From Actinomycetes bacterium (lineage in GTDB: Bacteria; Actinomycetota; CALGFH01), in contig DATFRI010000074.1 in assembly GCA_035263405.1 (NCBI GenBank), positions 9,824-73,823 of the forward strand: a stretch of DNA of 64,000 bases, given 5' to 3'. Under the pieces are notes generated by a model. It saw nothing but the letters and a program-made list of their open reading frames with translations, was not told the origin of the DNA and did not search any database. Position numbers and translations under genes: made by a program. How positions within the stretch are numbered: the stretch's first letter is position 1; each line of letters opens with the position of its first letter. Below are positions 21,861 through 50,140 of the stretch, piece after piece.

Positions 21861-24155
21861 GTGGTCGCCGGTTCGGTGATCGGAGGAGCGGTGGAGGTCG
21901 CACCCCCGAGCCTGGGCGACCGGTTCCCGAGCAGGCTGCGGACCGCGGTCATCGGCGTCACGGCTGCGGGCCGGCTGCTCCTGACGCTGCTGCTGCTGGC
22001 CGGCGTCCTGCTGCTGGTCGCGGTCGTGCGCCAGGCCGACGCCGGCGCGCACGAGCTGACCGGCGGGCGCCCCGCCGCCGGCGGACCCGCTGCAGGCACG
22101 CCGGCGGCCGGGGCGCGCGGCCGGGTGACGGCGGGCCGGAGCAGGCCCGTGCGCACCCCGCTGGGGCGCTACGAGGCCGCCGTGGCGCAGGCCGCAGGGC
22201 TGTCCGACCGGCTGGCGCAGCAGCCGCGGGCGCTCCCGGTCCCGCACGGCACGGGGACGGCCGGGGCCGCGTCGACGCGGAGACCGGCCCCCGCGAGCGG
22301 CAGGCGGCCTCCAGGCACGACGGGCGACACCGCGCCCAGGCTGGCACACGCCGGGTGGCGCCCGGCGAGGCTCCGGGCCGAGCCGGCCCACCGGCGGGCG
22401 GCCGCGCCCGGCAGCCGGGGCGCCCCGCGCCCGCCGGGCGGTGGGACGAAGGCGCCAGCCCGGTCGCGCGGCGCCGGCCAGGGCGTGCTGGCGCCCGCGC
22501 CGGCGCGGCCGGAGGAGGGCCCCCACCAGATCGGCCTGCCGGAGCCGATCGACATGTCGAGGATCCTCGCGGGCAGACGCGTGGTCTGGATCGGTGACGA
22601 CCACGGCTCCCTCCAGATGCGCGAGCAGCTGCCGTTGCTGCTGGCGCAGCTCCGGCAGGCGGGATTCACGGACCTGCTGCTCGAGGGGCTTTCGCACGAC
22701 CGCCGTGACGTGGACCCGGCGGACAGCGCCGCGGTCCTCCGGTTCATGAAGCGGACTGTGGAAGAGCTGCAGCCCGGCCTCATCGCCGCGAACCACAGGG
22801 TCTATGAATCCGCGAGGAAGCTGGGGTTCAACGTCTCCGGGCTGGAGCTGCCGAGACGCAGGCTCGCTGGCCTCCTGCACAGGATCTCCGCCGCGCTTCC
22901 CGGCAAGCGCAAGGACCGCGACAAGATCTTTGCGCACTCGGCGCCCAGGAGAGACCAGCACTTTGCCGAGACCGTCGCCAGACTTGCTGCGGATCCGCGC
23001 AGGAAGATCGCCATCCTGGTCGGCTTCGGCCACCTCGGGTACTGGTCGGTTGAGACGGCGAACACCCTGCTGGCGAAGAAGGGCATCCCGTCGGCGGTCG
23101 TGCAGACCTACCACTCCGACCTCACCAAGTTCTGGTACTCGGCGGCGCAGGACGTGATGCTCCTGGCCACGGAGATGATGCCCGACTCGTTCATGCTCGG
23201 GATGTCGGGGTCGAGGAACTGGGACTACCTGATCCGCTACGGTCCCGGACCGCCGCGGACCGCCGCCGGCGGACAGGCCCGACCGGCCCGGGAGCCGCTG
23301 GACCAGACGATCGCCCGCGAGCGCGCTCTGAAGCTGCTGGAGCGGCTCGTGACGGGCCTCAACCAGGACTTTCAACACAGGAGGACCTTCTCCGGCGGTG
23401 GTGAGGTGGTGAGGGTCGATTACCACGGCAAGCTGGTGCAGCGGTACCTGGAAACCGTCAACAAGCTGAAGGAACCGCTGCGGCCCGTCTTCGACCCGCC
23501 CGCGCCGTCCTGGCCGCCGCCGATGCCGGTGCCCGGACCCCGGTGGGACCCGCAACGCGACGGCGCGCTCCAGCCGGATGCGGAGACGGGACCGGAGGGC
23601 GGACAGCGTCCCGACCAGCCCGCCACGACCACGGCCCGCACCACCACCGCCGCGGCGTCCCCCCGGGCCCTCGCCGGCCGCCCGCCCGCCGGCACCGCCG
23701 GTACCCGGCCCGCCGGCGGCGCACGCGGCTTCACGCTCGGCATCGAGTCGGCGCAGGGAGCGAGCTTCGTCTACGCCGACGGTGCGCTCACCCTCCTCGA
23801 ACCCACCGACATCGAGGGGGTCCACGTCGAGGCGGGCACGGTCATCGACCGCGACCGCAACGTGATCGCCCCTGGCGGCACCGTGCTGGGCCCGCTCGGC
23901 CAGCTCGCCGCCGGCCAGCCGGCCGTCGTGCGCGACACGGACCAGGCCGGGGCCACTGCGGCCCCCGGTCCGGCCGGGCAGCCCGCGCTGCCGCCGTCGA
24001 CGCCGTCGGACACCACCGCGCCGGTGCCGGAGACGGTCACCGGCGCGCTCGATGGCGGCGACCGCACCGCCGCCGCCGGCGGCTCCGACGGCGATCCCCT
24101 CGGCAACGAGTTCGGTGACGTTCCCGGCGGCTACGGGTTCGGCGGCACAGGCTAG
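21861..24155 (+). CDS. Family member 1. Signal-anchor membrane protein with a Pro/Arg/Ala-rich linker, a ChaN/TraB/Tiki-like (Cofac_haem_bdg-like) domain, a Pro/Thr-rich region and a small C-terminal beta domain.
   Basis: TM segment RLLLTLLLLAGVLLLVAVVRQADAG. The domain carries VVWIGDDHGS...LLLEGLSHD...KIAILVGFGHLGYW, which resembles the GE.HDN / LEmf / aGagH pattern of ChaN-type proteins. The lower-GC core lies at about 22560-23480. Confidence 0.6.
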   Translation: MVAGSVIGGAVEVAPPSLGDRFPSRLRTAVIGVTAAGRLLLTLLLLAGVLLLVAVVRQADAGAHELTGGRPAAGGPAAGTPAAGARGRVTAGRSRPVRTPLGRYEAAVAQAAGLSDRLAQQPRALPVPHGTGTAGAASTRRPAPASGRRPPGTTGDTAPRLAHAGWRPARLRAEPAHRRAAAPGSRGAPRPPGGGTKAPARSRGAGQGVLAPAPARPEEGPHQIGLPEPIDMSRILAGRRVVWIGDDHGSLQMREQLPLLLAQLRQAGFTDLLLEGLSHDRRDVDPADSAAVLRFMKRTVEELQPGLIAANHRVYESARKLGFNVSGLELPRRRLAGLLHRISAALPGKRKDRDKIFAHSAPRRDQHFAETVARLAADPRRKIAILVGFGHLGYWSVETANTLLAKKGIPSAVVQTYHSDLTKFWYSAAQDVMLLATEMMPDSFMLGMSGSRNWDYLIRYGPGPPRTAAGGQARPAREPLDQTIARERALKLLERLVTGLNQDFQHRRTFSGGGEVVRVDYHGKLVQRYLETVNKLKEPLRPVFDPPAPSWPPPMPVPGPRWDPQRDGALQPDAETGPEGGQRPDQPATTTARTTTAAASPRALAGRPPAGTAGTRPAGGARGFTLGIESAQGASFVYADGALTLLEPTDIEGVHVEAGTVIDRDRNVIAPGGTVLGPLGQLAAGQPAVVRDTDQAGATAAPGPAGQPALPPSTPSDTTAPVPETVTGALDGGDRTAAAGGSDGDPLGNEFGDVPGGYGFGGTG

Positions 24156-24344
24156 CTCCGAATCGTTACTGGCCCGTGGCGGGCATGCGACGGGAGCAGG
24201 TCACGATGGTTCCGGAGGGTCGCCCGCGGCGCGTTGCGGCGACCCGCCCGCGAGCCGGACGTCCCCCTGTGCGGCGCCCTGAACCCTGACGGCGGGCAGC
24301 GTGCGCTGACCCGGCGTCATCCTGCCGCCTCCCCGGCCGGCTCG

Positions 24345-26483
24345 ATGGTGCTGCCGGGTGGGAGGAGTGGCGTGGAGTCTGATCGGGTCTCCCTGGACCG
24401 TGGGGCCGCCGGCTTCGGGCGTGCCGCCGCGGTCCTGGCCGGAGCGGTCCGGCTGCTGGTGGCCGCGCTGCTGCTCGGCACGGTCCTGCTGATCCTCGCG
24501 CTGGTCGACCAGAGTGTGGCGGGCGCGGCGGTCGCCGCCCGCGGGTCTTCGGCCGGCGCCCAGGTCGAGGCGACCCGGACGCCGGCCGGCGGACCGCGGA
24601 CCCCCGGGGCGGCCGGCAGCTCAGGGGCGCCGCAAGCCGTGGTGGAGCGGTATGCGCGGGCGTGGGAGGCGGCCGCGCGCCAGCTGCCCCGCGGCGCGGA
24701 TGCTCCGCCCGGACCGGTCGAGGTGGCCGCGCTCCAAGCCGGCACGCAGCCTGATGGTCGCGGGCGGGACGCGTCGGGGGTGCCGCCACCGTTGCAGCTC
24801 GCCTGGCCCGGGGCCAGGGCTCACGAGGCGCGCCAGCGGCTCAGCAACCCGCCTCGCATCCCCGACCCCACCGCCGGCGACGTCGGGGAGGAGGGGACCG
24901 TCGCGCCCGAGACCTCGCGCTGGATCACCTTCTCCTCCAGCCCGTTCCCGCCGGAAGGGAAGGCGAAGCGGCCGGCCTCCGGGCTTCCAGGACCCTGGGA
25001 GCAGCACACCGTCCTGCTCCGCACCGGCGAGAGCGTCTCGTTCACGGCCCGCAGCAGCTCGAAGGGCGGGGTGGAGTTCGCGCCGGGCACCGGGCCTCGG
25101 GGAGAACCCTTCAGGTGGCCGGACGGCACGGAGGAGTACCAGTGGTTCCAGACCCGGGACGGCTTCGTCCCACTCCGGACGCGCGTGCTCGACAACGAGG
25201 TCGAGGTCGCCGAGGTCACGCTCCCCCCACCCACGGTGCTGTACGAGAACGGACTGGCGGACTTCGGCAACCTGCTTCAGGTGACCATAACGACCGACCC
25301 GCACCCGCAGCCGCCGCCGCCGGACTGGAAGGTGGAGTCGGTGAAGGTCAACCTCGACGCCGCCACGGTGCTGCCGATCACCACGCGGGTGAGCCGAGCG
25401 GACGGCGTGACGTTCGGCGAGGGCCCCGGCCCGGTCGGCACGCCCGAGGTGCTGCCGGACGGCACCCAGCTGTACAGGTGGTACCGCTTGTACGGCCCCG
25501 ACGGTGAACACATGGACATGCGGCTGGACACGAAGGTCACGCCGTACAACGACCGGGAGGTCTCGTTCCGCAGCGCCTACTCCGACGACACGTGGGTCGA
25601 GCGCGAGTCGGGCTACGAGATCAGGATCGCGGTGCCGACCGAACCGGAGCTGCGGGTGAAGCCGCAGCCCAGCCCGCTGTGGGGTGGACACCTGGTCGAG
25701 GGCGTGGCCGACTACGGCGGGATGACGGCCAAGTTCTTGATCCAGGTGACCAGGGACGGCCGGGCGTTCCGGGGCAGCGGGCCGGTCGGGGCCTACACCG
25801 AGGACGCCGTCGACCACTCGCGCACCTACAGCTGGTTCTCGATCGAGAAGGAGGACGGCTCCACGCTCGTCATCCCGATGCAGGTGCACACGGAGGCCGA
25901 CGGGACCATTCGCAGCTTCGGGCGGTTCGACGGGCTGGTGCCGGCACAGCGGGCGTTCAACCCGCAGGGTCCGCCGCCGCGGGAGCTCAGGGAGCAGCGC
26001 TCCGAGCTGGAGTCACCCACGGACCCTGCGGACCTCGGGACCCCCGCGGGCGCGACCACCTCTGCGAGAGCGCAGGAGCCGGGCGGCGAGGCGCCCCGGC
26101 AGGCCCTGCAGGCCGACCTCGGTCCGCCGGACCAGACCCCGCCCGCCACGCCCGCGACGCCCATGGCGGGCGCCGTGCGGCCGGCGGAGACGGCGGAGGC
26201 GGCCGCGGCCTCGCCAGCGCCGCCGGTGGTGTCCGGCCAACCGTCCGGGCCGGTGGCCGGGTGGCCCCCGACGCCGCCGTCGGACCAGCCCACACACGTC
26301 GCGGAGGCTCCGCAGACGGCGCCGGCGGCACCGGAGCTGGCAGCGCCGGGGGAGCTGGTGGAAGCGGACGGCTCGGCGCCAGAGGACGGGGCCGGTGGCG
26401 CCGTCGGGCCGGTGCAGATGGCCGACGTCGAGGGCGACGCGGGCCCCGGGTTGCCCTTCGGCGGGGCCAGCCTCCCGTCCTGA
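24345..26483 (+). CDS. Family member 2. Signal-anchor membrane protein with a large uncharacterised beta-rich ectodomain and a Pro-rich tail.
   Basis: N-module RAAAVLAGAVRLLVAALLLGTVLLILALVDQSVAGAA is ~65% identical to that of member 3. The ectodomain (~aa 230-590) is locally lower GC. The alternative start is the GTG at 24372. Confidence 0.6.
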   Translation: MVLPGGRSGVESDRVSLDRGAAGFGRAAAVLAGAVRLLVAALLLGTVLLILALVDQSVAGAAVAARGSSAGAQVEATRTPAGGPRTPGAAGSSGAPQAVVERYARAWEAAARQLPRGADAPPGPVEVAALQAGTQPDGRGRDASGVPPPLQLAWPGARAHEARQRLSNPPRIPDPTAGDVGEEGTVAPETSRWITFSSSPFPPEGKAKRPASGLPGPWEQHTVLLRTGESVSFTARSSSKGGVEFAPGTGPRGEPFRWPDGTEEYQWFQTRDGFVPLRTRVLDNEVEVAEVTLPPPTVLYENGLADFGNLLQVTITTDPHPQPPPPDWKVESVKVNLDAATVLPITTRVSRADGVTFGEGPGPVGTPEVLPDGTQLYRWYRLYGPDGEHMDMRLDTKVTPYNDREVSFRSAYSDDTWVERESGYEIRIAVPTEPELRVKPQPSPLWGGHLVEGVADYGGMTAKFLIQVTRDGRAFRGSGPVGAYTEDAVDHSRTYSWFSIEKEDGSTLVIPMQVHTEADGTIRSFGRFDGLVPAQRAFNPQGPPPRELREQRSELESPTDPADLGTPAGATTSARAQEPGGEAPRQALQADLGPPDQTPPATPATPMAGAVRPAETAEAAAASPAPPVVSGQPSGPVAGWPPTPPSDQPTHVAEAPQTAPAAPELAAPGELVEADGSAPEDGAGGAVGPVQMADVEGDAGPGLPFGGASLPS

Positions 26484-26508
26484 CCCGGCCGGCCTGGGGA
26501 CTGGCTGG

Positions 26509-27462
26509 TCAGCTCGCGAGGACGGAGATGTCGCCGCTGCCGGTGCGGGCGATGATGGTCCGTGGCGCGGCGGGGTCCTGGCGCAGCGACAGGCTCGTCT
26601 CGCCGCTGCCGCTGTGCGCGTCGACCCGGTAGACCGCGTCGGGGACCGTGACCTGCACGTCGCCCGAGCCGCTGGTGGCGGAGACCTGGTCGGGCACGGT
26701 GGCGACCATGACCAGCTCGACGTCGCCGCTGCCCGAGCGTGCCTGGACGCGGCGGGCGTCGACGTCGGCGCCGGTGACGTCGCCGGAGCCGCTGGAGGCG
26801 GTGACGTCGCCGCGGACCCGCCGGACGAGGATCTCGCCGGAGCCGGTCTGCGCGGCGACCGGGCCGGTCACGTCGCGGGCGGTCACGTCGCCGCTGCCGC
26901 TGCGCAGGTCGGCCGCTGCCGCGAGGCCGGCGATCCGGACCTCCCCGGAGCCGGTATGGAGGTCGACCGGCGTCCGCGCCGGGACCTCGAGCCGGAAGCT
27001 CACCGAGCAGCGCCCGAGCCACAGCCGGCAGTCACCCCGCAGGCGGAGGGTGCCGCCGTCCAAGGTCTGCTCGACCTTCGGGCGGCGCCAGGACTGCTCG
27101 GCGGCGACCTCGACGCGGACGTCCTCGCGCGCGCCGGCGACGAGCCTGACGTCGCCGGACTCGGTGTCGACGCGGATGTCGCGAACGCCGGAGAACGTGC
27201 GCGTGGACCGCTCGGTCCGCCCGATGGCCTGCCCCACGAGGGCGGTGGAGCCGGCGAGGACGAACACCAGGCCGAGGATGCCGACCGCGATCGCGACGCC
27301 GCGGTTGCGCGGACGCCCCGGCCCGGCGGCGGCCCGCCCGGCGCCGCCGGTGCCTGCCAGCCCACTCCCACCGGTACCCGTCTGGCCGGCGCCGGTACCC
27401 GTCTGGCCGGCGCCCTGGTCGGTGCCGCCGGTGCCCGTCTGCTCGTTGCCGCTGGTGCTCAT
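26509..27462 (-). CDS. DUF4097-family beta-helix protein (putative adhesin fold) with an N-terminal Gly/Thr-rich segment and a TM
   Basis: Repeated SGSGDV / TGSGE beta-helix rungs, the TM segment VAIAVGILGLVFVLAGSTALV, and the SD GGGGAGGA upstream of the ATG at 27462. Confidence 0.8.
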   Translation of the reverse strand: MSTSGNEQTGTGGTDQGAGQTGTGAGQTGTGGSGLAGTGGAGRAAAGPGRPRNRGVAIAVGILGLVFVLAGSTALVGQAIGRTERSTRTFSGVRDIRVDTESGDVRLVAGAREDVRVEVAAEQSWRRPKVEQTLDGGTLRLRGDCRLWLGRCSVSFRLEVPARTPVDLHTGSGEVRIAGLAAAADLRSGSGDVTARDVTGPVAAQTGSGEILVRRVRGDVTASSGSGDVTGADVDARRVQARSGSGDVELVMVATVPDQVSATSGSGDVQVTVPDAVYRVDAHSGSGETSLSLRQDPAAPRTIIARTGSGDISVLAS

Positions 27463-27587
27463 CTGCGGATCCTCCCCGCTCGGTGGGCCGGCCCACGCGT
27501 GCGCCGGCCCGCTGTCACTGAACCACCGGGACCGCCTGCGGCGCCCGCCGACCCGACTGCACGCCGGGGGCGCCGCAGGCGCCGCTG

Positions 27588-34290: not shown

Positions 34291-36150
34291 ATGCAGGGTG
34301 GTCACGCTGGTCCGGTCGTCCACGCCCCCGCCAGGGCGACACGTGTCGGGGCCGGACTGGCCAGGACCGTCCGGCTGCTGACCGCGGTGGTGCTGCTCGG
34401 CACGGCCCTGCTGATCGTCGCGCTGGTCGGCCAAGGCACCGCAGGCGCCAGGGGGCTGGTCCGGGCGCCGGACCAGGAGGCTCCGGGCAGCCTGCCGGGA
34501 CCACGACCGGTCACCGGTGACCCGGCCGGCACGGCGGCCCTGGAGCACGCCAGGGCGGACGCGGACACGCTGCTGCGCCGGATCCCACCCGACAGCGCCC
34601 GGGCCGGGGGCACCGCCGCCGCCACCAGCCCGCCGGCGCAGCCCGGCGCTCCCGGGGACCCGCGCAGCGGCAGCACGCTCGAGCCCGAGTCGTTGGGCCG
34701 GGCGCTGCCCTCCAAGCGGGTGCAGGTCGCCCGGGCGCCGGACGGCCAGGACGGGCAGGGCGAGGGCGTGGACAGCGACCTTCCACCCGAGAGCGTGCGG
34801 GTCGCGGCGGCGTCGGGTGCGGTCCCGTTCGTGGCGACCGCGCCGTACGTGACGATGGCGGCCGCGCGGAAGGGGCCTGGCCGCCAGCCGTCGCAGCCCG
34901 CGCCCACGCCCTCACCCAGCAGTCGCGCGAGGCCGGCCAAGGAGATGACCCCAGAGCAGCGCGAGGCCGAGGCCTCGCAGCTCGAAACCGACATGTACGA
35001 GGCCAAGCTTCGCCTGACGCTGATGGACCGGCTGCGCCCCCCGCCGGTCGACCCGCAGGCGACGCCGAAGGTTGCAGCCCAGCAGCGGCAGGAGCTGGAC
35101 GCCCACCATGCCGAGTGGAGACGGCTCGTCCGCGACCTGGAGGCGAAGCAGGAGCGCTACGGCGAGCTGAGGACCGAGACGCACTACCCGCCGGAGCTGG
35201 ACGCCATGACACCGGCCGAACTGCTCGAGCGAGACAGACTCCTGGATGCCGAGGTTCAGAAGAACGTCGCCGAGGGAGGAGCGGAGAGACGCCCGAGGTC
35301 CAACGACCCGGCGGAGGTCGAGCGCTGGGCCAGGCTCACCCTCGACCGGGAGGACTGGTACCCCAGGCTGCTCAGCGACGTCCGCGAGGCGATCGGGGCC
35401 AAGCTGGACGACCTGACGGCACGCGGCGTCGACACTCAGGAGGTCCGGCAGCTCCAGGCCACGTACGACAGGCTCGACCAGACCCCGGCCTACCCGCCGC
35501 GCCTGGCCCACGTCCCCTGGGTCGAGCAGGGACGACAGGCCAAGTCCCTCCAAGCTGCGATCGAAGCCAACGAGCAGCGGCTGGCCGCCCCGGAGTCCGA
35601 CGCGCAGCGTATCGAGATCCTCAAGCAGAACGCGGCGATGAAGCGGGAGCTGGGCTTCATCAAGAGGAGCCTGGACTCGGTCAAGGACGTGGGCACGCCG
35701 ACCGACAAGGGCGGGGAGCTGACGCCGCCGGACCTGGACACCGGCACCGACCCGTCGGCCACCAGGCTCGCCGGCGAGCCGGCCCCTGGTGCCCCGGTCG
35801 AGGCCGCTCAGGTGGACGCCTTGACGCCGCCGCCGGCACCTGTGCACGAGCTGGTCGAGGGCGACCCCTTGCCGCCGGGGACGCCCGTCGCGGGCCTGGT
35901 CGGCGGCCAGACCGGTACCGCCGGCCAGGGGCTGAACCCCGGCTCAGCGCCTGCTCCGGCTCCGGCGGTCCTGGCCACGGAGCCGTCGCCCGCACCGTCC
36001 CCGGCGGTCGTGGCGTCGGAGCCAGCGGTCGTCCTGTCACCGACGGAGGCTGGCGACGCCACCCTGTTCGACAACGACCCCACCGTCGACGGCGTGGGCG
36101 CCGGCACCTGGACCGACGACAGCTCCTTGGGCAGCACCCTCCTGAGCTGA
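34291..36150 (+). CDS. Family member 3. Signal-anchor membrane protein with a Pro-rich linker, a helical / coiled-coil ectodomain and a Pro/Ala-rich tail.
   Basis: SD AAGGAG before the ATG at 34291. N-module RATRVGAGLARTVRLLTAVVLLGTALLIVALVGQGTAGARG. The lower-GC core lies at about 34900-35700. Confidence 0.6.
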   Translation: MQGGHAGPVVHAPARATRVGAGLARTVRLLTAVVLLGTALLIVALVGQGTAGARGLVRAPDQEAPGSLPGPRPVTGDPAGTAALEHARADADTLLRRIPPDSARAGGTAAATSPPAQPGAPGDPRSGSTLEPESLGRALPSKRVQVARAPDGQDGQGEGVDSDLPPESVRVAAASGAVPFVATAPYVTMAAARKGPGRQPSQPAPTPSPSSRARPAKEMTPEQREAEASQLETDMYEAKLRLTLMDRLRPPPVDPQATPKVAAQQRQELDAHHAEWRRLVRDLEAKQERYGELRTETHYPPELDAMTPAELLERDRLLDAEVQKNVAEGGAERRPRSNDPAEVERWARLTLDREDWYPRLLSDVREAIGAKLDDLTARGVDTQEVRQLQATYDRLDQTPAYPPRLAHVPWVEQGRQAKSLQAAIEANEQRLAAPESDAQRIEILKQNAAMKRELGFIKRSLDSVKDVGTPTDKGGELTPPDLDTGTDPSATRLAGEPAPGAPVEAAQVDALTPPPAPVHELVEGDPLPPGTPVAGLVGGQTGTAGQGLNPGSAPAPAPAVLATEPSPAPSPAVVASEPAVVLSPTEAGDATLFDNDPTVDGVGAGTWTDDSSLGSTLLS

Positions 36151-36599: not shown

Positions 36600-38200
36600 G
36601 GGGTGTCGGTGTCCATCGCGTTCTGTCCGCATCTGTCAGTCGGGGAGCACTGCGGCCGGGTGCGCTGTCGGGAGCATCCGCCATGCTCTGGGGATGACCA
36701 TCGCCGCACCCACCGACGTCCCTGCCGCGCCCGCGCGCGAGCCGGCGCCGCTGGGCTGCGTGCAGGCCTACCGGTTCGCGCTGGACCCCACCCCGAGGCA
36801 GCAGCGGGCGCTGGCGTCCTCGGCTGGCGGCGCCAGGTTCTGTTTCAACTGGGGCCTGGAGCACGTCAAGCAGCTGCTGGACCGGCGTGCCGCTGGCGAG
36901 CCGGTCGAGGTCCCCTGGAGCCTGTACGCGCTGCGGCGGGCGTGGAATCAGGCCAAGGACGAGGTCGCGCCGTGGTGGCCGGAGAACAGCAAGGAGGCGT
37001 ACAACAGCGGCTTGGACGGCCTTGCCCGGGCGCTCAAGAACTTCTCCGACGGCCGCTCGGGCAAGCGCAAGGGCCCGCGGGTGGGGTTCCCGCGGTTCCG
37101 CAAGCGGGGCCGCACCAAAGCGGCGGTCCGGTTCACCACCGGGACGATCCGCGTGGAGGCCGACCGCAAGCATGTGACCCTGCCGCGGTTGGGCGCGCTC
37201 AGGACCCACGAGTCCACCCGCAAGCTCGCCCGGCGGCTGGAGGCTGGCAGCGCCCGCATCCTCAGCGCCACGGTCAGCCGCACGGGTGGCCGCTGGTTCG
37301 TCTCCTTCACCTGCCAGGTGACCCGCACGGTGCCCGCCCGGGCGGCACGGCCGCCGCGGGTGGTCGCCGCGGACGCCGGGGTCACGCAGCTGCTGACCCT
37401 GTCCACCGGCGAGCGTATTCCCAACCCCGCCGCGCTCCGCCACGCGCTGGTCAGGCTACGGCGGCTGAACCGGCAGCTCGCCCGGCGCAAGGGCCCACGC
37501 ACCCCTGCGGGCGGCTACCGCGAGCCATCCGCCAACTGGTTGGACGCCAAGGCCGAGCTGGCCCGGGCGCACGCGCGGGTGGCCAACCTGCGCCGTGACG
37601 CGTTGCACCAGGCGACCAGTCGGCTCGCGCGGGAGTATGACCTGGTCGTCGTCGAGGCCTTGCGAGTGGCCAATCTGCTGCGCAGGGCTCGCGGCAAGCG
37701 GGGGCTCAACCGGGCGCTCGCCGACGCGGCGCTGGCGGAGCTGCGCCGGCTGCTTGGCTACAAGTGCCCGTGGGCGGGGTCGGTGCTGCTGGAAGCCGAC
37801 CCGTTCTTTCCCTCCAGCAAGAGCTGCTCTGGTTGCGGGGTGGTCAAAGCCACGCTGCCCTTGACCGAGCGGGTGTTTCGCTGTGATGCGTGCGGTCTGG
37901 TCGTCGACCGGGACGTGAACGCCGCGTTGAACCTCGCCGCCCTCGCGAGCAGCCGCCTCGTCACCGTCATCGGTGACGCGGGGCAGAGGGCCGGCGCCGG
38001 GAGTGGCCCGGGACCGTCAACCGCCCGTGGAGGCCAGGTAAGACCCCGCGTCCGCGCGGGGCACCGGTCGGCGAAGCGGGAAGCCGGCACCGGCCTGAGC
38101 CTTCAGGCTGGGTGAGACCGGCACCGCCGGGTCGCAAGGCCCAGGCTGCCCGGACCGCGACGATCACAGATCGTCGTTGAAGTTCCGAGTAACGGTCGCG
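36600..38200 (+). mobile_element. tnpB-only IS200/IS605-family (IS1341-like) element. Boundaries are approximate. A 7-bp inverted repeat CGACGAT-N5-ATCGTCG sits at about 38155-38180 in the presumptive right end / omegaRNA region.
   Basis: TnpB gene is flanked by short non-coding stretches and inserted between convergent host genes (holin-like gene and S8 peptidase gene). I did not see terminal inverted repeats of the DDE type, which is consistent with IS605-family elements. Confidence 0.6.
36694..38115 (+). CDS. tnpB: IS200/IS605-family TnpB (OrfB_IS605 RuvC-like nuclease with C-terminal Zn-ribbon)
   Basis: 473 aa with an N-terminal HTH/OrfB region, RuvC-like motifs and the Zn-ribbon CSGCG...CDACG. 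No tnpA is adjacent. Confidence 0.9.
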   Translation: MTIAAPTDVPAAPAREPAPLGCVQAYRFALDPTPRQQRALASSAGGARFCFNWGLEHVKQLLDRRAAGEPVEVPWSLYALRRAWNQAKDEVAPWWPENSKEAYNSGLDGLARALKNFSDGRSGKRKGPRVGFPRFRKRGRTKAAVRFTTGTIRVEADRKHVTLPRLGALRTHESTRKLARRLEAGSARILSATVSRTGGRWFVSFTCQVTRTVPARAARPPRVVAADAGVTQLLTLSTGERIPNPAALRHALVRLRRLNRQLARRKGPRTPAGGYREPSANWLDAKAELARAHARVANLRRDALHQATSRLAREYDLVVVEALRVANLLRRARGKRGLNRALADAALAELRRLLGYKCPWAGSVLLEADPFFPSSKSCSGCGVVKATLPLTERVFRCDACGLVVDRDVNAALNLAALASSRLVTVIGDAGQRAGAGSGPGPSTARGGQVRPRVRAGHRSAKREAGTGLSLQAG

Positions 38201-38202
38201 GG

Positions 38203-39465
38203 TCAGCCGTACGACGCGGGGTTGACCACCGCACCCAGGCCGCAGCCGCGCTCCTGCAGGCGCGGCGCGGCGGGCGCGCCGACCAGGCGGAAGGCGGCCT
38301 CGGGCGCGTCCATGCCCGTGCCGGCCAGGGCCGCGATCGCCCCGGCCACCCGTGGCGCCGCGAACGACGTGCCGCTCCAGGAGGCCCACAGCCGGAACTG
38401 CTGGGTCCCGGACGCGGGCTGCCCCAGGCAGTGCGGGCCCGGTCCCGGCTCGGGGTCGAAGTCGGCGTCGAAGAACGTGCTGTGCACGTCCACGCCCGGC
38501 GCCCAGGCGTCCACCCAGGTCCCGAAGTTGCTGAAGCACGCGCGCCGGCCGTCCGGGCCGAGCGCCCCCACGCCGAGCACGCGCTTGAACGCCGCCGGGT
38601 AGGTGCGCCGGTCCAGGCCGTCGTTGCCGGCCGCGGCGACCACGACCAGGTGGGGGTTGCGCCGGAAGCACTCGGTGAGCGCGGCGGCGGTCAGCGGCGG
38701 CTCCTGGTCCCCGTGGGTGTAGGCGCCGAGCGACAGGTTGGCGACCTGGACCTCGGGCGGCAGCTCGGCGAGCGCGCCGGCCAGCGCGGCGTCGTCGCAC
38801 ACGCCGTCGCCGCCGAACACCTTGCGGGCGACCACCTCGGCCCCGGGCGCGTGCTGGAGGATCACGCCGGCGACGAAGGTGCCGTGGCCGGCGTAGTGGG
38901 CCAGCTGGTTGTTGGCGCGCAGGACCGGCGCCTCGGTGTCGGCCTGGGGGTTGGGGCGCAGCGTCCGGGCGCGGGGGCCGAGCCAGGGATGGCCCTCCAT
39001 GAGGCCGCTGTCGAACACCGCCACCCGCACGCCGGCGCCGGGCTGCTCGCTCATCTGGCTGGACAGCGCCCCGAGCGGGCCGGCGCCACGGGGGGACGTG
39101 GCCGGGAACGGCAGGGGGTGGGTGCCGCCGAACAGCACGTGGTTGGGGTGGACGCCGACCGGCCGCTCGCCGAGCTCCAGGTCGAACTCGCGCCCGCGGA
39201 TGAGCTGCACGATCTCGGGCACGGTCGGCTCCTCGGCGTCCAGCAGCAGCCGCACGAAGCCGCCGGCCTCGAGCCGCTCCTCGGCCCACTGCGCCAGGCC
39301 GAGGCGGCGCAGCTCGCCGCGCACGCGCTCCAGGTCGCGCGGGCCGGTGAGGAGCTGGCGCGGCCGGTACAGGTAGCCGCCGCCGAGGTGGTGCGGCGCC
39401 TGCTCGACGTCGGCCGGCAACGACACCTCGTGCGGCTCGCCGTGGCCCTGCGGCTCGTTCTCCAT
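38203..39465 (-). CDS. S8-family subtilisin-like serine peptidase with no signal peptide
   Basis: Catalytic triad contexts VAVFDSG (Asp), HGTFVAG (His) and GTSFAAP (Ser). SD GAGGAGG before the ATG at 39465. The N-terminal 140 aa are hydrophilic and lack a secretion signal. Confidence 0.85.
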   Translation of the reverse strand: MENEPQGHGEPHEVSLPADVEQAPHHLGGGYLYRPRQLLTGPRDLERVRGELRRLGLAQWAEERLEAGGFVRLLLDAEEPTVPEIVQLIRGREFDLELGERPVGVHPNHVLFGGTHPLPFPATSPRGAGPLGALSSQMSEQPGAGVRVAVFDSGLMEGHPWLGPRARTLRPNPQADTEAPVLRANNQLAHYAGHGTFVAGVILQHAPGAEVVARKVFGGDGVCDDAALAGALAELPPEVQVANLSLGAYTHGDQEPPLTAAALTECFRRNPHLVVVAAAGNDGLDRRTYPAAFKRVLGVGALGPDGRRACFSNFGTWVDAWAPGVDVHSTFFDADFDPEPGPGPHCLGQPASGTQQFRLWASWSGTSFAAPRVAGAIAALAGTGMDAPEAAFRLVGAPAAPRLQERGCGLGAVVNPASYG

Positions 39466-39628
39466 CCCGGCCTCCTCGCTTTCACGGTGGGCTGCGCCCG
39501 AATTTGTCTCCTTCGTACAATCTCGGACCCGAGCAGTCCAGATCGCGTCGTCCGGGTGGGATGATCTCCTGAGCCGCGCCGAGCCGTCCCGACGCCTGCC
39601 AGCTCCCGTTCCCGTGGGGAGGACCGCC
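39466..39628. promoter_or_regulatory. Divergent promoter region between the S8 peptidase and CHAT genes. It contains an unusually AT-rich segment (CCCGAATTTGTCTCCTTCGTACAATCTCGG).
   Basis: Local GC drop in otherwise >70% GC DNA, at the position expected for shared divergent promoters. Confidence 0.3.
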
Positions 39629-42307
39629 GTGCCCGGATCCGCCGCCAGCATCGCCGCGCGGGCGATGGAGCTGTCCGGGGTCGACCCGGGACGGGCGCGC
39701 GTGACCGCCGCGGAGGCGCTGCGCGAGGCGCGGGCCGAGCACGACGCCGCCGCCGCCTGCATGGCCGAGCGGGCGTTGGGGCTGGCGGCCAGGCAGGCCT
39801 TCGAGATCGACAGCGCGCTCGGGCACCTGCGCCGCGCGGTCAGGATCGCCGAGCGCGGCGGCCTCGTCCTGCAGGCGGCGCAGGCCAGGGTGCAGCTGTC
39901 GGGCATCCTCGCCGTCCGGGGCGAGTTCCCCGCCGCCCTGCGGGAGGCCGACCGGGCCAGCCCCACCCTGCGCGGCGGCGACCTGGCCCTGCTCCAGGCG
40001 CAGCGCGCGTTCATCCTGCAGATGCAGGGCCGCCTGGCCGACGCGCTCGAGGGCTACCGGCTCGTCCTGCCCGCCTTCCGCCGCTCGGGGGACACGTTCC
40101 ACGAGGCCAAGGCGCTGCACAACCGGGGGCTGCTGCACTACCACCTCGGCGCCCTCGGGGCCGCCGAGGTGGACCTGGCCCGCGCCGCGGAGCTGTGGAC
40201 CGGCCTCGGCAACCAGCGGGAGACCGCCGACGCGGACCAGAACCTCGGCTGCGTCCTGGTCCGCCAGGGCCGGCTGCCCGACGCCCTGGCCCGGTTCGAC
40301 CGCGCCGACGCGTACTTCGCCGCCAAGGGCATCCTCGACCCCGTGGGCCTGCGCGACCGCTGCGAGGCGCTGCTCGCCGCGCGCCTGGTCGCCGAGGCCC
40401 GCCGGACCGCCGAGCAGGCCGTCGCCGGGCTGGCCGCGCGGGGGCTGGCGCCGTTCCTCGCCGAGGCGCAGCTGCTGCTGTCGGAGGCGGCGCTGCTGGA
40501 CGGCGACGTGGCCGCCGCACGCGACGCGGCCACGGCCGCCCGCAAGGGGTTCGCCGGCCAGCGCCGGGCGCGCTTCCTCGCGCTGGCCCGCTCAGCCCTG
40601 CTGCGGGTGGCCTGGGCGAGCGGGGAGCGCTCGCCGCGGCTGCTCGCCGACGCCCGCCGGACCGCGCGGGCGCTGGCCGTGGCGGGCTGGACGGTGCCCG
40701 CGCTGGACGCGCGGCTGGTCGCCGCCCAGCTCGCGCTGGACCTGGGGCGCGTCAGGACCGCCCGCGCCGAGCTGGCCCAGGCGACCGCGGCGCGCCAGCG
40801 CGGCCCGGTGGAGCTGCGCTCCCGCGCGTGGCACGCGGAGGCGCTGCTGCGGCTGGCGGGCGGCAACCGCGCCGGCGCCGAGTCGGCCCTGCGCGCCGGT
40901 GTCCGCATGCTCGGCCGCTACCGCGCCGCCCTGGGCGCCACCGAGCTGCGCGCCAGCTCCTCGATGCACGCGGCCGGCCTGGCGCGCCTGGGGCTGCGGC
41001 TGGCGCTCGCCGACGGCGACGCGCGCCGGGTGCTGCGCTGGGCGGAGCGCTGGCGCGCCAGCAGCCTGCAGCCGCACCCGGTGCGCCCGCCCGGGGACCG
41101 GGAGCTGGCCGGCGACCTGGCGCAGCTGCGCCGGGTCGCCGGCGAGCTGGGCGAGGCGGTCCAGGCCGGCCGCGACACCGCGCGGCTGCGCGCCCGGCAG
41201 GCGGCGTTGGAGGAGGCCGTGCGCCGCCGCGCGCGCCAGGCACCCGCCGCCGGCCTCTACCAGCCCGGCGTCGAGCCCGCCCTCGGGTCCCTGCGGGCGG
41301 CGCTCGGCGAGCGCGCGCTGGTGGAGCTGGTCGAGCTGGACGGCCAGCTCCACGCCGTGGTCGTCACGGCCGGGCGCACCCGGCTGCGCCCCCTCGGCCC
41401 CGTCGGCCAGGTCGCCGGCGAGCTGGACGGGCTGCGCTTCGCGCTGCGGCGCATCGCGCACGGCCACGGCGGCCCGTCCTCGCTCGACGCCGCGGCGCAG
41501 GCGCTCGCGGCCGCCGCCCGCGGCCTGGACGACCTGCTGCTCGACCCGCTTCGGCCGGACCTCGGCGACCGGCCGCTGGTGGTGGTCCCCACCGGCGCGC
41601 TGCACGCGCTCCCCTGGCCCGCGCTGCCGAGCTGCGCCGGCCGCCCGGTCGCCGTGGCGCCCTCCGCCGCGCTGTGGTGCGCGGCGACCTCCCGCCCCCA
41701 CCCGCCCGAGCCCGTTCCCGGGGCCCCCGCCGGGACGCGGCCCGCGGCCGCGCCGGACCGCACCGTCCTGGTCGCCGGGCCGGGCCTGCCCGAGGCCGCC
41801 GCCGAGGTCGCCGACCTGCACGACCGCTACCCCGGCGCCCGCCGCCTGACCGGCGAGGCCGCCACCGTCCACGCGGTCGCCGGCGCGCTCGACGGCGTCG
41901 CCCTCGCCCACGTCGCCGCGCACGGCCGCTTCCGCACCGACAACCCGCTGTTCTCGGCGCTGGAGCTGGCGGACGGGCCGCTCACCGTGTACGACCTGGA
42001 GGCCCTGCGCGCGGCGCCGCTGCGGCTGGTCCTGGCCGCCTGCGACGCGGGGCTGTCGGAGGTCCGCCCGGGCGACGAGCTGATGGGGCTGGCCGCCGCC
42101 CTGTTCACGCTGGGCATGCGCACGATGATCGCCTCGGTCCTGCCGGTCCCGGACACCGCCACCCGTCCGCTGATGCTCGCGCTGCACGACCGGCTGCGCG
42201 CCGGGCTGGAGCCCGCCGACGCGCTCGCGGGCGTCCAGGCCGGCGCGGCGGCCAGCGCCAGCTCGTGGGCCGCGTCGGTGAGCTTCGTCTGCTTCGGAGC
42301 CGGCTGA
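39629..42307 (+). CDS. TPR-like repeat / CHAT (caspase-like) domain protein
   Basis: The N-terminal ~550 aa are Ala/Leu/Arg-rich helical repeats. The C-terminal CHAT domain carries the His-Cys dyad contexts HVAAHGRF and LVLAACDAG. SD GGGGAGGA before the GTG at 39629 (ORF track start 39614). Confidence 0.8.
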   Translation: MPGSAASIAARAMELSGVDPGRARVTAAEALREARAEHDAAAACMAERALGLAARQAFEIDSALGHLRRAVRIAERGGLVLQAAQARVQLSGILAVRGEFPAALREADRASPTLRGGDLALLQAQRAFILQMQGRLADALEGYRLVLPAFRRSGDTFHEAKALHNRGLLHYHLGALGAAEVDLARAAELWTGLGNQRETADADQNLGCVLVRQGRLPDALARFDRADAYFAAKGILDPVGLRDRCEALLAARLVAEARRTAEQAVAGLAARGLAPFLAEAQLLLSEAALLDGDVAAARDAATAARKGFAGQRRARFLALARSALLRVAWASGERSPRLLADARRTARALAVAGWTVPALDARLVAAQLALDLGRVRTARAELAQATAARQRGPVELRSRAWHAEALLRLAGGNRAGAESALRAGVRMLGRYRAALGATELRASSSMHAAGLARLGLRLALADGDARRVLRWAERWRASSLQPHPVRPPGDRELAGDLAQLRRVAGELGEAVQAGRDTARLRARQAALEEAVRRRARQAPAAGLYQPGVEPALGSLRAALGERALVELVELDGQLHAVVVTAGRTRLRPLGPVGQVAGELDGLRFALRRIAHGHGGPSSLDAAAQALAAAARGLDDLLLDPLRPDLGDRPLVVVPTGALHALPWPALPSCAGRPVAVAPSAALWCAATSRPHPPEPVPGAPAGTRPAAAPDRTVLVAGPGLPEAAAEVADLHDRYPGARRLTGEAATVHAVAGALDGVALAHVAAHGRFRTDNPLFSALELADGPLTVYDLEALRAAPLRLVLAACDAGLSEVRPGDELMGLAAALFTLGMRTMIASVLPVPDTATRPLMLALHDRLRAGLEPADALAGVQAGAAASASSWAASVSFVCFGAG

Positions 42308-42541
42308 CGCGCGCGGCCGGGCGTCCGCAGGCCGCGGTATCAGCGGGGGCCCGCGCCTGCTCCCGCAGACGAGGTCGAGCGGCGGCGGAGGGCATCGATG
42401 CGGACGGGAGCGTGCGCGCCGGCGTGGCGGAGGCCACGCCCGCCGGCCCCGGCCACGCCTCGCATGGGGGGTGCCATCGCGCCGGGCCGCTGTGCTACGT
42501 TCTCGCAGTTCGAGCGTACTGGCACGACCGAGAGGAACCGG

Positions 42542-43108
42542 TTGGTGGATCGGGACGTCGCCGTCCTGCTCGGCGACGCCGCCAACGGCGACCACCGCGC
42601 CTGGGAGTCGCTGGTGGACCGCCTCAGTCCCCTGCTCTGGTCCGTCGCGCGGGGCTACCGGCTCAGCCAGCCCGACGCCGAGGACGTCATCCACACCGCC
42701 TGGATGCGCCTGCTGGAGCGGCTCGACCGGATCGAGGACCCCGCCCGCGTGGGCTCCTGGCTGGCGACCACCGTCCGCCACGAGTGCCTGCGCCTCCTGC
42801 GGCGGCAGGGGCGGATCGTGCTGACCGGCGAGGCGGAGCTGGACAGCGGCGCCAGCGACCAGCCGACCCCCGAGGCCGCGCTGCTGCGGGCCGAGCGCAG
42901 CACCCTGCTCGCGCACGCGTTCGCCCAGCTCCCGCAACGCTGCCAGCAGCTGCTGCGCATGCTGGCCGTGCGCGCGTCCTACGAGGAGGTCGCGGGCGCC
43001 CTCGACATGCCGGTCGGCGCGATCGGCCCGACCAGGGGCCGCTGCCTGCAGCGGCTCCGCCAGCGGCTGGCGGCCGGCGGGATCAGCGTCAGCAGGCTGG
43101 CCGACTGA
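42542..43108 (+). CDS. ECF (sigma-70 family) RNA polymerase sigma factor
   Basis: Sigma-70 region 2 (LWSVARGYRLSQPDAEDVIHTAWMRL) and region 4 (ASYEEVAGALDMPVGAIGPTRGRCLQRLR). The start is a TTG/GTG at 42542/42545 after GAGAGGAA. The upstream part of the ORF track entry is unlikely to be coding. Confidence 0.85.
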   Translation: MVDRDVAVLLGDAANGDHRAWESLVDRLSPLLWSVARGYRLSQPDAEDVIHTAWMRLLERLDRIEDPARVGSWLATTVRHECLRLLRRQGRIVLTGEAELDSGASDQPTPEAALLRAERSTLLAHAFAQLPQRCQQLLRMLAVRASYEEVAGALDMPVGAIGPTRGRCLQRLRQRLAAGGISVSRLAD

Positions 43109-43135
43109 GGCCGCCCGGGCAGGGAAGGAGGCAGG

Positions 43136-43597
43136 ATGCGCGACTCACCCGAGGACGAGCGGCTCCTCGACGAGCTGCGCCGGGTGCTCGACCGCACCGA
43201 CCCGATGCCCGAGCAGGTCACCCGCGCCGCCAGGGAGAGCTACACCTGGCGCACGGTCGACGCCGAGCTGGCCGCGCTGGCCTGGGACTCCGACGCCGAC
43301 CGGCCGCTGGCGTCGGTGCGCGGCACCGGGGACGCGCGGCTGCTCACCTTCGACGCCGAGGGCCTGCGGTTCGACCTGGAGATCAGCGGCAGCGGCCGCG
43401 ACCGGCGCCTGGTCGGCCAGCTCGTCCCGGCGCAGCCCGGCGAGGTGGAGCTGCGGCAGCGGTCGGGCCTGGCGCGCACGGTCCAGGCCGACGACGCCGG
43501 CCGGTTCGCCATCGCCGACCTCGAGCCCGGCCCGCTCAGCCTGTGCTGCCGGCGTCCCGGGGCGGCGGTGGTCGCCACGGAGTGGTTCCTGCCCTGA
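43136..43597 (+). CDS. Hypothetical 153-aa protein in the ECF sigma operon. A possible soluble anti-sigma or regulatory partner.
   Basis: The SD GGAAGGAGG precedes the ATG. It begins 27 nt after the sigma-factor stop. The C-terminal half is beta-rich. There is no TM segment and no zinc-finger anti-sigma motif. Confidence 0.55.
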   Translation: MRDSPEDERLLDELRRVLDRTDPMPEQVTRAARESYTWRTVDAELAALAWDSDADRPLASVRGTGDARLLTFDAEGLRFDLEISGSGRDRRLVGQLVPAQPGEVELRQRSGLARTVQADDAGRFAIADLEPGPLSLCCRRPGAAVVATEWFLP

Positions 43598-43611
43598 CCG
43601 AGGAGGCGGGT

Positions 43612-44286: not shown

Positions 44287-44313
44287 CGACGGCCGCGGGA
44301 CGGGCGGCCCCGG

Positions 44314-44508
44314 TCAGGAGGAGCCGAGCGAGCGCGGCGGGTAGAGGGACCTCGCCCAGCCGCGGATCGCGTCGGCCGGCGAGCCGAGGCTGAACAGCGC
44401 GGTCAGGGCGAGGAAGCAGCCCAGCAGCAGCATCCCCATCCTCGCGCCGGCCAGGCCCCAGGCGAACGCCACGAGCCCGCCGTACACCGTCACCGCGACC
44501 AGTCGCAT
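44314..44508 (-). CDS. Small hypothetical membrane protein (64 aa, 2 TM)
   Basis: ATG ORF with two hydrophobic segments. No homology recognised. Confidence 0.3.
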   Translation of the reverse strand: MRLVAVTVYGGLVAFAWGLAGARMGMLLLGCFLALTALFSLGSPADAIRGWARSLYPPRSLGSS

Positions 44509-44628
44509 CGCGCCACCTCCTGCCAGGGCCGGGGACCAGCCCCAGCGTAGCGCCGCGCCCGGCCGGGCTCCACGGTCGCCGGTGCGCCGGTCAGGCGTGC
44601 CGCCGCGTGGGCGCTTCCCTCGGGCGTC

Positions 44629-45609: not shown

Positions 45610-45739
45610 CGGCTTCCTCCTCGCTCGGGTGCGACCTCGCATCGTGTAGCCCTGGACCGCGAGCTGTCCAGCACCGGGAGGCCGGACGGCCGGGTGGAGC
45701 GGCGCCAGCGGGCCCCCCGCGTGGCGGCGGCCGGGCGTG

Positions 45740-46906
45740 TCAGGCGCCGAACCAGCTGCCGCCGAGGCCGCCGTCGCCCGAGATCTCGGGGGCGTCCGCG
45801 ACCTCCATCCCCTCAGCGGCCCTGGCCGGCATGAGCTGGACGTCGGCCATCTCGGTGTCGTCGACGTCTCTGCCGCCGACCTCCGTGGGCAGGGGCTCGG
45901 GCTCGAAGCCGGCGACCTCGAGAGGCGTGCCGCCACCGGTGAAGGCCAGGGCCGGCGGACCCGCGGCGGCGTCCACGCCGGCGCGGCCCTCTTGCCCGTC
46001 GGACCCGGCCACGGCCGTGGAGGCGAGCTGCTCCTCGGCTGGCTGCCGCAGCGCGTCGGGGTTCGCCCCGTCGCGCTCCCAGGGGAGCTTGGTGGGCAGG
46101 CGCGGCACCTCGAACGGAGGGACCGGCCGGTCGTCACGCAGCTCCCAGGGCTTGCTCGGCAGCTTCAGGTGGGGAACAGGCGAGGGTGCGTCCGGTGTGT
46201 CCTGCTCCTCTCCGGGCGCCGGAGGATCCTCCAGGCCCAGCCGCTTCCGCTCCTCCTCCACCAGCCGGCTCAGCTCGGAGAACTCCCGGCTCAGCTTCTC
46301 CAGCTTCTCCAGCTGCTCCCCCAACAGCATGTCCTTGTCGTTGAAGACCCTGTAGAACTCCTGGTCGTTCTCGACCATCTGGTTCCACAGCTCTATGCCG
46401 CGGTCGCTCTTGGGGATCCTCGCCGGTGGCTCGCCGGGCTGCAGCGGGGGCGGCAGGAAGAGCGGGGGGTCGGCTTCGCCGGGGCTGGCGGACCGCGGCC
46501 CGTCCTTCGGCCGGACCCGCTGCTCGCCAGGGAGCGCCTGCGCGAGCCTCGGGGCGGTGGCGCCGGTCCCGGTCCCGGCCGGGAGCGGGCCGCCGGGGCC
46601 GGGCGTGCGCGGTGCCTGCGCGGCGGTCACCGCCCGCTCCCACCGCCCGGCGCCGTCGGGGTCGCCGGTCCGCAGCTGGGCCATCCGCACCGCGGCTTCG
46701 AGCGCCCAGGGCGGGTCGCCCGGGCGGGCCAGGTCGTAGGCGAGGGCGGGCTCGCCCGCGCCGGCGCCCGACTGGCCCACGAGGGCGACCACGAGGACGA
46801 GGGTGGCGAGGAGGACCGCGGCCGTCAGGGCGTACAGGACGGTCGTGAGCGCCGGGCGCGCGGGGGGCGGGGCCGCGGACGGGACCGCGCGGGGCTCCGG
46901 CGGCAT
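45740..46906 (-). CDS. Family member 4. Signal-anchor membrane protein with a Pro-rich linker and a Lys/Glu-rich coiled-coil ectodomain.
   Basis: SD GAAGGAG before the ATG at 46906. N-module ALTTVLYALTAAVLLATLVLVVALVGQSGAGAGEP. The lower-GC 3' half encodes ...IELWNQMVENDQEFYRVFNDKDMLLGEQLEKLEKLSREFSELSRLVEEERKRL. Confidence 0.6.
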   Translation of the reverse strand: MPPEPRAVPSAAPPPARPALTTVLYALTAAVLLATLVLVVALVGQSGAGAGEPALAYDLARPGDPPWALEAAVRMAQLRTGDPDGAGRWERAVTAAQAPRTPGPGGPLPAGTGTGATAPRLAQALPGEQRVRPKDGPRSASPGEADPPLFLPPPLQPGEPPARIPKSDRGIELWNQMVENDQEFYRVFNDKDMLLGEQLEKLEKLSREFSELSRLVEEERKRLGLEDPPAPGEEQDTPDAPSPVPHLKLPSKPWELRDDRPVPPFEVPRLPTKLPWERDGANPDALRQPAEEQLASTAVAGSDGQEGRAGVDAAAGPPALAFTGGGTPLEVAGFEPEPLPTEVGGRDVDDTEMADVQLMPARAAEGMEVADAPEISGDGGLGGSWFGA

Positions 46907-50137: not shown

Positions 50138-50140
50138 GGG

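Follow-up and report, generated by a model that had tools for sequence, protein, structure and literature searches.

Four genes in a 64,000-nucleotide stretch of an Actinomycetes bacterium (GenBank assembly GCA_035263405.1, contig DATFRI010000074.1, positions 9,824 to 73,823; hereafter the window, numbered from its first letter) encode proteins that, by sequence comparison, are paralogues of one real, previously undescribed and rare family, which has so far been found in uncultured actinobacteria only. The genes lie at 21861-24155 (+), 24345-26483 (+), 34291-36150 (+) and 45740-46906 (-), and their products are called here M1, M2, M3 and M4, respectively. Each product starts with a basic tail, a single hydrophobic segment with a common core, and an A-x-A site; this N-terminal block defines the family. 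The best reading of the available sequences is that the proteins are probably exported to the cell envelope, form a family specific to one lineage and have an N-terminal signal dedicated to them. Codon-position GC content identifies all four genes as true coding sequence, with a GC content at third codon positions (GC3) of 0.90-0.94 in a window of 76% GC. According to the profile searches, the source metagenome-assembled genome (MAG; locus tags VKG45) has at least six members, M1-M4 and, on other contigs, VKG45_05580 and VKG45_14760, and one soil-type metagenome has at least nine.

The similarity of the N-termini is found by several independent measures. An earlier note on this DNA, made from the letters alone, had proposed a four-gene family with a conserved N-terminal module, and the proposal is borne out by a regular expression, a DNA pattern, hidden Markov models (HMMs) and shuffling statistics. 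In the six-frame translation of the window, M1-M4 are the only matches to [AVLI][LVI]V.Q..[AG]G[AG], and each match sits at the end of the sole N-terminal hydrophobic segment of its protein. A degenerate DNA pattern covering ten invariant residues matches the window four times, compared with 0.00 matches expected from 100 shuffles. All six pairs of blocks reach z-scores of 2.8-8.6 against shuffles preserving local composition, whereas the 170 residues that follow, the centres and the C-terminal 60 residues of M1-M4 show no consistent similarity by the same shuffling. The M2 and M3 blocks are 64% identical over 36 residues (BLASTP E value 1e-6), as against the roughly 65% estimated earlier, and 83% identical over 77 nucleotides, and this likeness is confined to the block. 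An HMM built from metagenome relatives only recovers M3, M4 and M2 at E values of 5e-17 to 2.5e-8 among 487 six-frame open reading frames (ORFs), with noise starting at E>1. M1 is weaker with this model and scores 39-59 bits with other family profiles. Profiles from independent sequences give the members 39-58 bits and everything else in ten sequences, read in six frames, at most 6 bits.

Database searches place the block among rare sequences. A block profile of 45 columns, built from M1-M4 and a 39-residue JGI fragment (P0002), recovers 14 of 14 locally known members with default HMMER filters, although nine of these were absent from its build. Exhaustive HMMER searching of 1.84 billion protein representatives with this profile gives 57 proteins at E<=1e-3; with few exceptions, their block spans residues 17-60 or thereabouts. 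This rarity, together with position-specific conservation, indicates on sequence grounds that the block is not a generic signal peptide. The sources of 20 of the 57 clusters were checked; all are MAGs or metagenomes, and all the proteins are named 'hypothetical protein'. A strict DNA pattern run over JGI metagenomes finds 51 loci, whose translated-block scores are bimodal. Scores of 83-103 belong to eight loci, which stand on eight contigs of the one metagenome Ga0126377 (GC content 0.71-0.77), whereas the other 43 score at most 46 and are chance matches, for example in MFS transporters. A ninth family member from the Ga0126377 scan stands in tandem on contig L156. Word-index protein searches return only M2 itself for full-length M2, only P0002 for the block profile, and only P0003 (E 0.015) for the M1 centre. 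Pfam has no family for the shared module in M1-M4 or in 48 family members, and NCBIfam gives nothing significant for the ten proteins scanned (M1-M4 and six metagenome members). The module is therefore still without a named family; the first reading of the letters had likewise placed it in none.

Conservation along the block was measured over 61 distinct copies, numbered relative to the A-x-A site. Arg at -26 is conserved in 97% of copies, Leu at -24 in 90%, Ala at -22 in 93%, Leu at -19 in 100% and Leu at -13 in 98%. These are followed by Ala at -10 (90%), Leu at -9 (92%), Val at -8 (92%), Gly at -7 (82%) and Gln at -6 (92%). At the site itself, Ala occupies -3 in 98% and -1 in 93%, position -2 is variable (G, A, T, D, S, V), and +1 is Arg in 64% and otherwise G, A, Q, D, E or H, but never Pro. 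The free positions -23, -21/-20, -16/-15 and -12 form a stripe on one side of the helix. The hydrophobic core comprises 18 residues (-25 to -8) with a mean Kyte-Doolittle hydropathy of 2.96, a length at the long end for a cleaved signal. Net charge is +2.4 in the 16 residues before the core, compared with -0.3 after it (n=63). Each protein has one strongly hydrophobic segment, and 2 of 63 have a marginal second stretch.

In the window, the signal/anchor block of M1 (-26 to -1; 21972-22049, +) reads RLLLTLLLLAGVLLLVAVVRQADAGA and is the most divergent of the four. The M2 block (24450-24527, +) reads RLLVAALLLGTVLLILALVDQSVAGA. The M3 block (34372-34449, +), RLLTAVVLLGTALLIVALVGQGTAGA, is the nearest to the family consensus. 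The M4 block (46757-46834, -), YALTAAVLLATLVLVVALVGQSGAGA, is without the Arg at -26 that is almost invariant elsewhere.

The block contains the features expected of Sec export and signal peptidase I processing, namely a basic n-region, an uninterrupted h-region, small residues at -3 and -1 around a free -2, a c-region with a helix break, and a +1 residue other than Pro. Other routes were looked for in 63 members. There is no Tat motif (RR.[FGAVML][LITMVF]) in the first 60 residues, and the single Arg at -26 follows V or L. Cys is never found at +1 and M1-M4 have no Cys at all; two incidental lipobox-like strings occur elsewhere in N-termini (P0024 and P0039). The last 60 residues contain no sortase motif (LP.TG); the tails are acidic, and a second strong hydrophobic segment is absent. 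The YSIRK motif ([YF]S[IL]RK) occurs in 0 of 63. The n/h/c layout with its signal peptidase I site and the charge asymmetry predict an N-in/C-out orientation. The block would most likely serve as a Sec-type signal by which the remainder of the protein is put on the outer side of the membrane. A member has, in order, a basic tail of 25-35 residues that is predicted to be cytoplasmic, the 18-residue core, G-Q-G-x-A-x-A, a stalk, an exchangeable centre and an acidic tail. Either signal peptidase I would cut at A-x-A, or the block would stay in the membrane as a type II anchor.

The retention of Ala at -3 and -1 around a free -2 argues for cleavage by signal peptidase I, and cleavage at A-x-A is given a chance just above even; the sequence slightly favours it over an anchor. 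The competing explanation, with a standing somewhat short of even, is that the block is an uncleaved type II signal-anchor whose helix packs on a membrane partner or on itself as an oligomer. With the same likelihood, the Pro/Ala stalk would then hold the central domain beyond the cell wall. The core plus GQGxAxA is long enough to cross the membrane, most of the helix is conserved with a variable stripe of the kind expected for a lipid-facing side, a Pro/Ala-rich segment of 100-200 residues follows directly, and a cleaved signal peptide is not usually more conserved than its mature protein. In contrast, the two highly conserved alanines, the free -2, the Gly/Gln break and the absence of Pro at +1 make a textbook signal peptidase I site, for which an anchor has no obvious need, and no partner gene is linked to the members.

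The block is kept by selection. Among 14 copies with available DNA, mean block identity is 70%, and 43% of the codons for identical residues differ synonymously. The block of M3 and that of a relative on contig L001, the locus of P0002, are identical at 26 of 27 residues with eight synonymous codon differences, while the ectodomains are 34% identical. RibD_C, the only housekeeping protein common to the window and a Ga0126377 contig, is 62% identical. Comparison of these figures indicates that the block is under stronger conservation than an ordinary enzyme, and far stronger than the mature parts of the same proteins. A recent duplication or gene conversion, that is, concerted evolution instead of function, might also keep blocks alike, and the 83% nucleotide identity of M2 and M3, limited exactly to the block, is what such a process would leave. 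It is very unlikely, however, because synonymous sites have diverged, which points to selection and not conversion. In addition, the block is equally conserved between organisms and samples, codon bias with GC3 above 0.9 alone inflates nucleotide identity, and block variants track the centre type, DQSVA-type blocks occurring solely with M2-type centres, in several samples. The differing centres and the synonymous divergence also argue against the 57 database matches being one population resampled. As conservation exceeds the needs of export, the block is probably also a recognition element. All members could share it as a dedicated signal for sorting, for anchoring or for binding a partner, and the central domains would supply differing functions.

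The region after the block is more loosely conserved. In about 60 sequences, a Pro/Ala/Gly-rich stalk of 100-200 residues follows, in which a short helix and the motifs T-V-P-x-[LW]-G/A-x-A and LPPGSVxVAA are loosely conserved. A post-block profile from 52 sequences, none of them from the window, detects M3 at E 5e-9 and M2 at E 5e-7 among the 487 six-frame ORFs; an earlier profile from 8 sequences detected no window member. The TVP motif ranks M4 first, and M1 second or fourth and weakly. Among the four proteins alone, the short conserved helix and the linker described earlier show no significant likeness.

The C-terminal ends are alike in character. An acidic Pro/Ala tail ending in an aromatic/Gly/Asp patch was present in 10 of the 10 complete members first examined, and aromatic residues are enriched 4.6-fold in their last 20 residues (p = 7e-6). 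Of 44 long members, 20 have the motif [FLW][DSAGE]N[DGEN] within 130 residues of the C-terminus, M1 (LGNE) and M3 (FDND) among them; its frequency is 0.35 per 100 residues in tails compared with 0.0046 in decoys, or about 77 times as high. The C-terminal patch of M1 (24093-24152, +), DPLGNEFGDVPGGYGFGGTG, has this Φ-x-N-[D/E/G] motif together with terminal aromatics, and that of M3 (36058-36147, +), which ends in ATLFDNDPTVDGVGAGTWTDDSSLGSTLLS, includes it as well. The claim that the proteins are unrelated beyond the linker is therefore correct for the centres, but not for the tail that all of them share. Some acidic tails (the C-termini of P0012 and L171) contain EF-hand- or dockerin-like D-x-D-x-D-G-x-[IL]-x-x-x-D strings, such as 'DADTDGAILAAD', which hint at Ca2+ binding.

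The centres seen in the family are TIKI/ChaN-like domains (a hydrolase or binding fold), all-beta repeats, helical 'PYPPELD' repeats, and helical bundles or coiled coils. M1 (764 aa) corresponds to the NCBI protein HKE99603.1 (VKG45_11800), which is called at 754 aa from a start 10 codons downstream, at about 21891. Its central alpha/beta domain (aa 222-463; 22524-23249, +) was modelled with AlphaFold2 (AF2) from six sequences, with a predicted local distance difference test score (pLDDT) of 74 and a predicted template modelling score (pTM) of 0.77. Foldseek places HopBA1 (E 1.8e-8), PMT, ChaN, RRSP and BcR135 at the top of the PDB matches, all of which are TIKI-superfamily structures listed in PMC6254334. 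A profile of M1-type centres also finds RRSP among PDB sequences at E 1.2e-5. In this alignment M1 GDDH lies on RRSP GEVH, with the first Glu replaced by Asp and the His kept, and LLLEGL lies on IGLEHL with the Glu kept. The Arg of PRRDQ and the second His, in GFGHLGY, align with P0003, a protein carrying PF04187 and PF01963. By these alignments, GDDH, LLLEGL and GFGHLGY sit at the catalytic His/Glu motif positions of the superfamily. Three of six full-length M1-type members keep both His residues and the other three have lost both. M1 itself has no Pfam match even at E<=1 and falls under the PF04187 and PF01963 thresholds, and a relative, L171, passes PF04187 with 29.3 bits against a threshold of 27.7. 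The model and the sequence profile together give the M1 centre a TIKI/ChaN fold, in agreement with the ChaN/TraB-like domain first suggested. Centres of this type are found in at least seven members, or about 7 of 63.

M2 (712 aa), which stands in tandem with M1, is called by NCBI, on a 111-kb MAG contig, as a hypothetical protein of 703 aa (VKG45_11805, P0001) with a start 9 codons later. Its all-beta repeat centre (aa 216-538; 24990-25958, +) contains three repeats with PDGT..Y.W[FY], and relatives of this type are P0008, P0042 and P0043. The AF2 model is all-beta, so the proposed beta-rich domain is predicted as such, but at low overall confidence (pLDDT 46, with about 80 in the first 75 residues), and Foldseek gives no meaningful fold match for this poor model. 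M3 (619 aa; HKE99611.1, VKG45_11840) has a helical-repeat centre (aa 219-468; 34945-35694, +) with two '[HA]YPP[EQR]L[DA]' units. This 'PYPPELD' type occurs in at least nine members, among which are L001, L138 and L161, and the M3 centre has no sequence match in the PDB. M4 (388 aa) has a short K/E-rich helical centre (aa 168-226; 46229-46405, -). Its gene has a PPK2 gene downstream on the same strand, and P0004 is a near-identical fragment of M4 from another sample. Some JGI and ENA contigs have near-identical copies of the M1-M2, M3 and M4 loci. From sequence alone, the centres of M3 and M4 look helical or coiled-coil, which is the form first proposed for them.

The coexistence of one N-terminus with unrelated downstream domains in paralogues resembles polymorphic toxins, and the earlier note had seen a resemblance to polymorphic surface or effector families. 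In the full form of this idea, a conserved module for delivery would carry cargo cassettes of foreign composition that are shuffled horizontally. The lower-GC patches on which this was in part based are real (0.63-0.72 against the window mean of 0.76). They arise, however, from codon positions 1 and 2. In none of the 50-codon blocks of the four genes does GC3 leave the range 0.82-1.00, and it is flat along each gene, which gives no support to a foreign composition. The centres have the GC content of ordinary window genes (0.72-0.76) and the linkers are unusually GC-rich (0.80-0.87); because the dips are in the first two codon positions only, they reflect ordinary folded-domain composition beside Pro/Ala/Gly/Arg linkers. 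In favour of the idea, the GC3 of the four genes falls a little short of that of housekeeping genes (0.96-0.99) and equals that of a neighbouring TnpB gene, and M3 is 0.5 kb from this IS605 TnpB gene. Nevertheless, a shuffled effector family is very unlikely. Every type of centre is found again with this N-module in other metagenomes, as a stable subfamily, the variable part is central and followed by a conserved tail, no small immunity-like gene follows any member, the annotated neighbours are housekeeping genes without toxin or immunity functions, and Pfam finds no toxin domain. The TnpB gene itself (36694-38115, +; GC3 0.90), downstream of M3, combines OrfB_IS605, a Cas12f1-like TNB domain and an HTH.

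Gene neighbourhoods provide no common partner. M1 and M2 are directly downstream of a flotillin gene, which is real (it matches Band_7 and Flot), and of a small ORF read earlier as NfeD, on which the idea was built that the members are clients of a flotillin/NfeD microdomain system. That ORF (19664-19930, +; at most 88 aa), upstream of flotillin, weakly matches the NfeD C-terminal domain alone (E 0.024, below the Pfam cut-off) and has no membrane part. Unrelated genes surround M3 and M4, at a distance of 10-22 kb, and 0 of 10 related loci (L001, L136, L138, L154, L156, L161, L162, L167, L171 and L173, with flanks of 1-10 kb) have flotillin or NfeD in the sequenced flanks. The linkage is thus restricted to M1-M2. 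A client relationship is very unlikely on this evidence, even though gene order cannot exclude physical interaction. The promoter comparison that had been suggested gave the same picture: in 14 upstream regions no 9-mer is common to more than three, and no shared promoter or 5' untranslated region motif was found. The related loci have unrelated housekeeping neighbours, which include ClpB with GrpE, YidC with RibD_C, a BBE oxidase, LtrA, AlkZ, MetH, an Rce1-like protease, and a crgA-sortase-pbpA-rodA cluster.

Three of these loci have further features. On L156, two family members stand in tandem (1881-3710 and 4586-6430) like M1 and M2, and tandem duplication seems to be one route of family growth. 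On L173, the member P0016 (7579-8424, -) is convergent with the gene for an Rce1-like/CPBP intramembrane protease, a single case that does not recur in other loci. On L001, the M3-like gene (10001-11364) lies beside a sortase gene in a crgA-pbpA-rodA-pstP-fhaAB cluster and is split over two frames between the block and the rest, by a frameshift, pseudogene formation or an assembly error.

The weakest explanation, that the N-terminal likeness is that of any Leu/Ala/Val-rich signal or helix in a 76% GC organism and that no family exists, draws on the biased composition of the block (HMMER bias terms of 10-20 bits), on composition-corrected BLASTP missing the M4 pairs and on a similar helix end in a DUF4097 protein of the window, but has almost no credibility given the few database matches with the block at one N-terminal position, profiles that separate members from the rest, that DUF4097 protein included, the shuffle z-scores with invariant positions alternating with free ones, and the tail features and centre types that members also have in common. 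The N-terminal membrane helix of the DUF4097 'toastrack' protein (26509-27498, -) ends in 'ALVGQAIG' and looks like the ALVGQ of the block; the resemblance is due to chance, as the family HMM gives this protein no score.

Several points weigh against a family of exported envelope proteins with a dedicated signal. Export and cleavage are deduced from sequence rules. The 18-residue core and the n-region of 25-35 residues are long for a cleaved signal, and a Pro/Ala stalk immediately after the block fits an uncleaved anchor better. The M1 block is divergent and the M4 block is without the conserved Arg. The conserved stalk elements are weak, and the 52-sequence profile does not detect M1 or M4. 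The extra role suggested for the block comes from its conservation alone, and no candidate partner co-occurs in the examined loci. Moreover, the source check of 20 clusters leaves some room for members from cultured organisms.

Apart from the family genes, the window contains other groups of genes. In a cluster at 38203-43597, an S8 subtilase gene (-), with a likely true start at about 39474, is divergent from the gene for a TPR and CHAT (caspase-like) protein of 897 aa (39614-42307). After the latter come genes for an extracytoplasmic function (ECF) sigma factor (42398-43108) and for a protein of 153 aa (43136-43597) that matches CarboxypepD_reg weakly. A Septum_form-domain membrane protein is encoded at 48551-50140. 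The region 56793-59824 has two tandem DivIVA-domain paralogues (56793-57749 and 57782-58738) and then a DprA-like gene.

Four known systems resemble the family in part. The YSIRK-G/S motif in Sec signal peptides of Gram-positive surface proteins adds targeting information beyond export. It is the best analogy for the way in which the block may work, as a motif inside a signal that is conserved across otherwise unrelated surface proteins, both within one genome and between related species. In contrast to YSIRK-G/S, the block is conserved over the whole h- and c-region and not at the n/h boundary, the host is an actinobacterium and not a firmicute, and the C-terminus has an acidic tail with Φ-x-N-[D/G] in place of LPXTG. 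Since none of the defining features of YSIRK is present, the block counts as a new module outside the YSIRK class. The TIKI/ChaN/TraB-PrgY/erythromycin-esterase superfamily shares with the M1 centre the alpha/beta fold and the predicted His, Glu, Arg and His at motif positions. This likeness is limited to M1-type centres, however, and does not extend to the family-defining block, and neither Pfam nor NCBIfam has a family in which a TIKI centre is joined to this N-module and acidic tail. Polymorphic toxins were considered above. The mycoplasma Vlp/Vsp proteins are variable lipoprotein families with conserved signal peptides, and like the present family they are encoded by many genes, with conservation strongest in the signal peptide and with differing mature regions. 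Unlike Vlp/Vsp, the present family has no lipobox Cys at the site, no tandem-repeat mature regions and no phase-variation tracts, and no conserved 5' region was found.

By analogy with YSIRK/LPXTG or with C-terminal sorting tags, the block and the C-terminal Φ-x-N-[D/G] tail motif might together constitute a new sorting signal for a lineage-specific surface-display or secretion route of an uncultured actinobacterial clade, in which a dedicated membrane partner or peptidase would recognize it; this is possible but doubtful. Enterococcal pheromones derive from signal peptides, and in a speculative variant the cleaved hydrophobic peptide (..LLxVALVG..) could itself be a signal molecule on which TIKI/PrgY-like paralogues would act.

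As a rule, a signal peptide changes faster in evolution than the exported protein behind it. The reverse is seen here, where the block is 70-96% identical across paralogues with unrelated mature parts, and across organisms with only 62% identity in a housekeeping protein. Such conservation is a mark of sequences with additional information, for instance for targeting, for anchoring or for the binding of a partner. New envelope machineries, sortases and exosortases among them, have more than once been discovered through dedicated sorting signals. A family that is invisible to Pfam and NCBIfam and comes from uncultured soil-type actinobacteria is thus a piece of testable 'dark matter', and it also supplies new TIKI-fold proteins that are predicted to be membrane-tethered.

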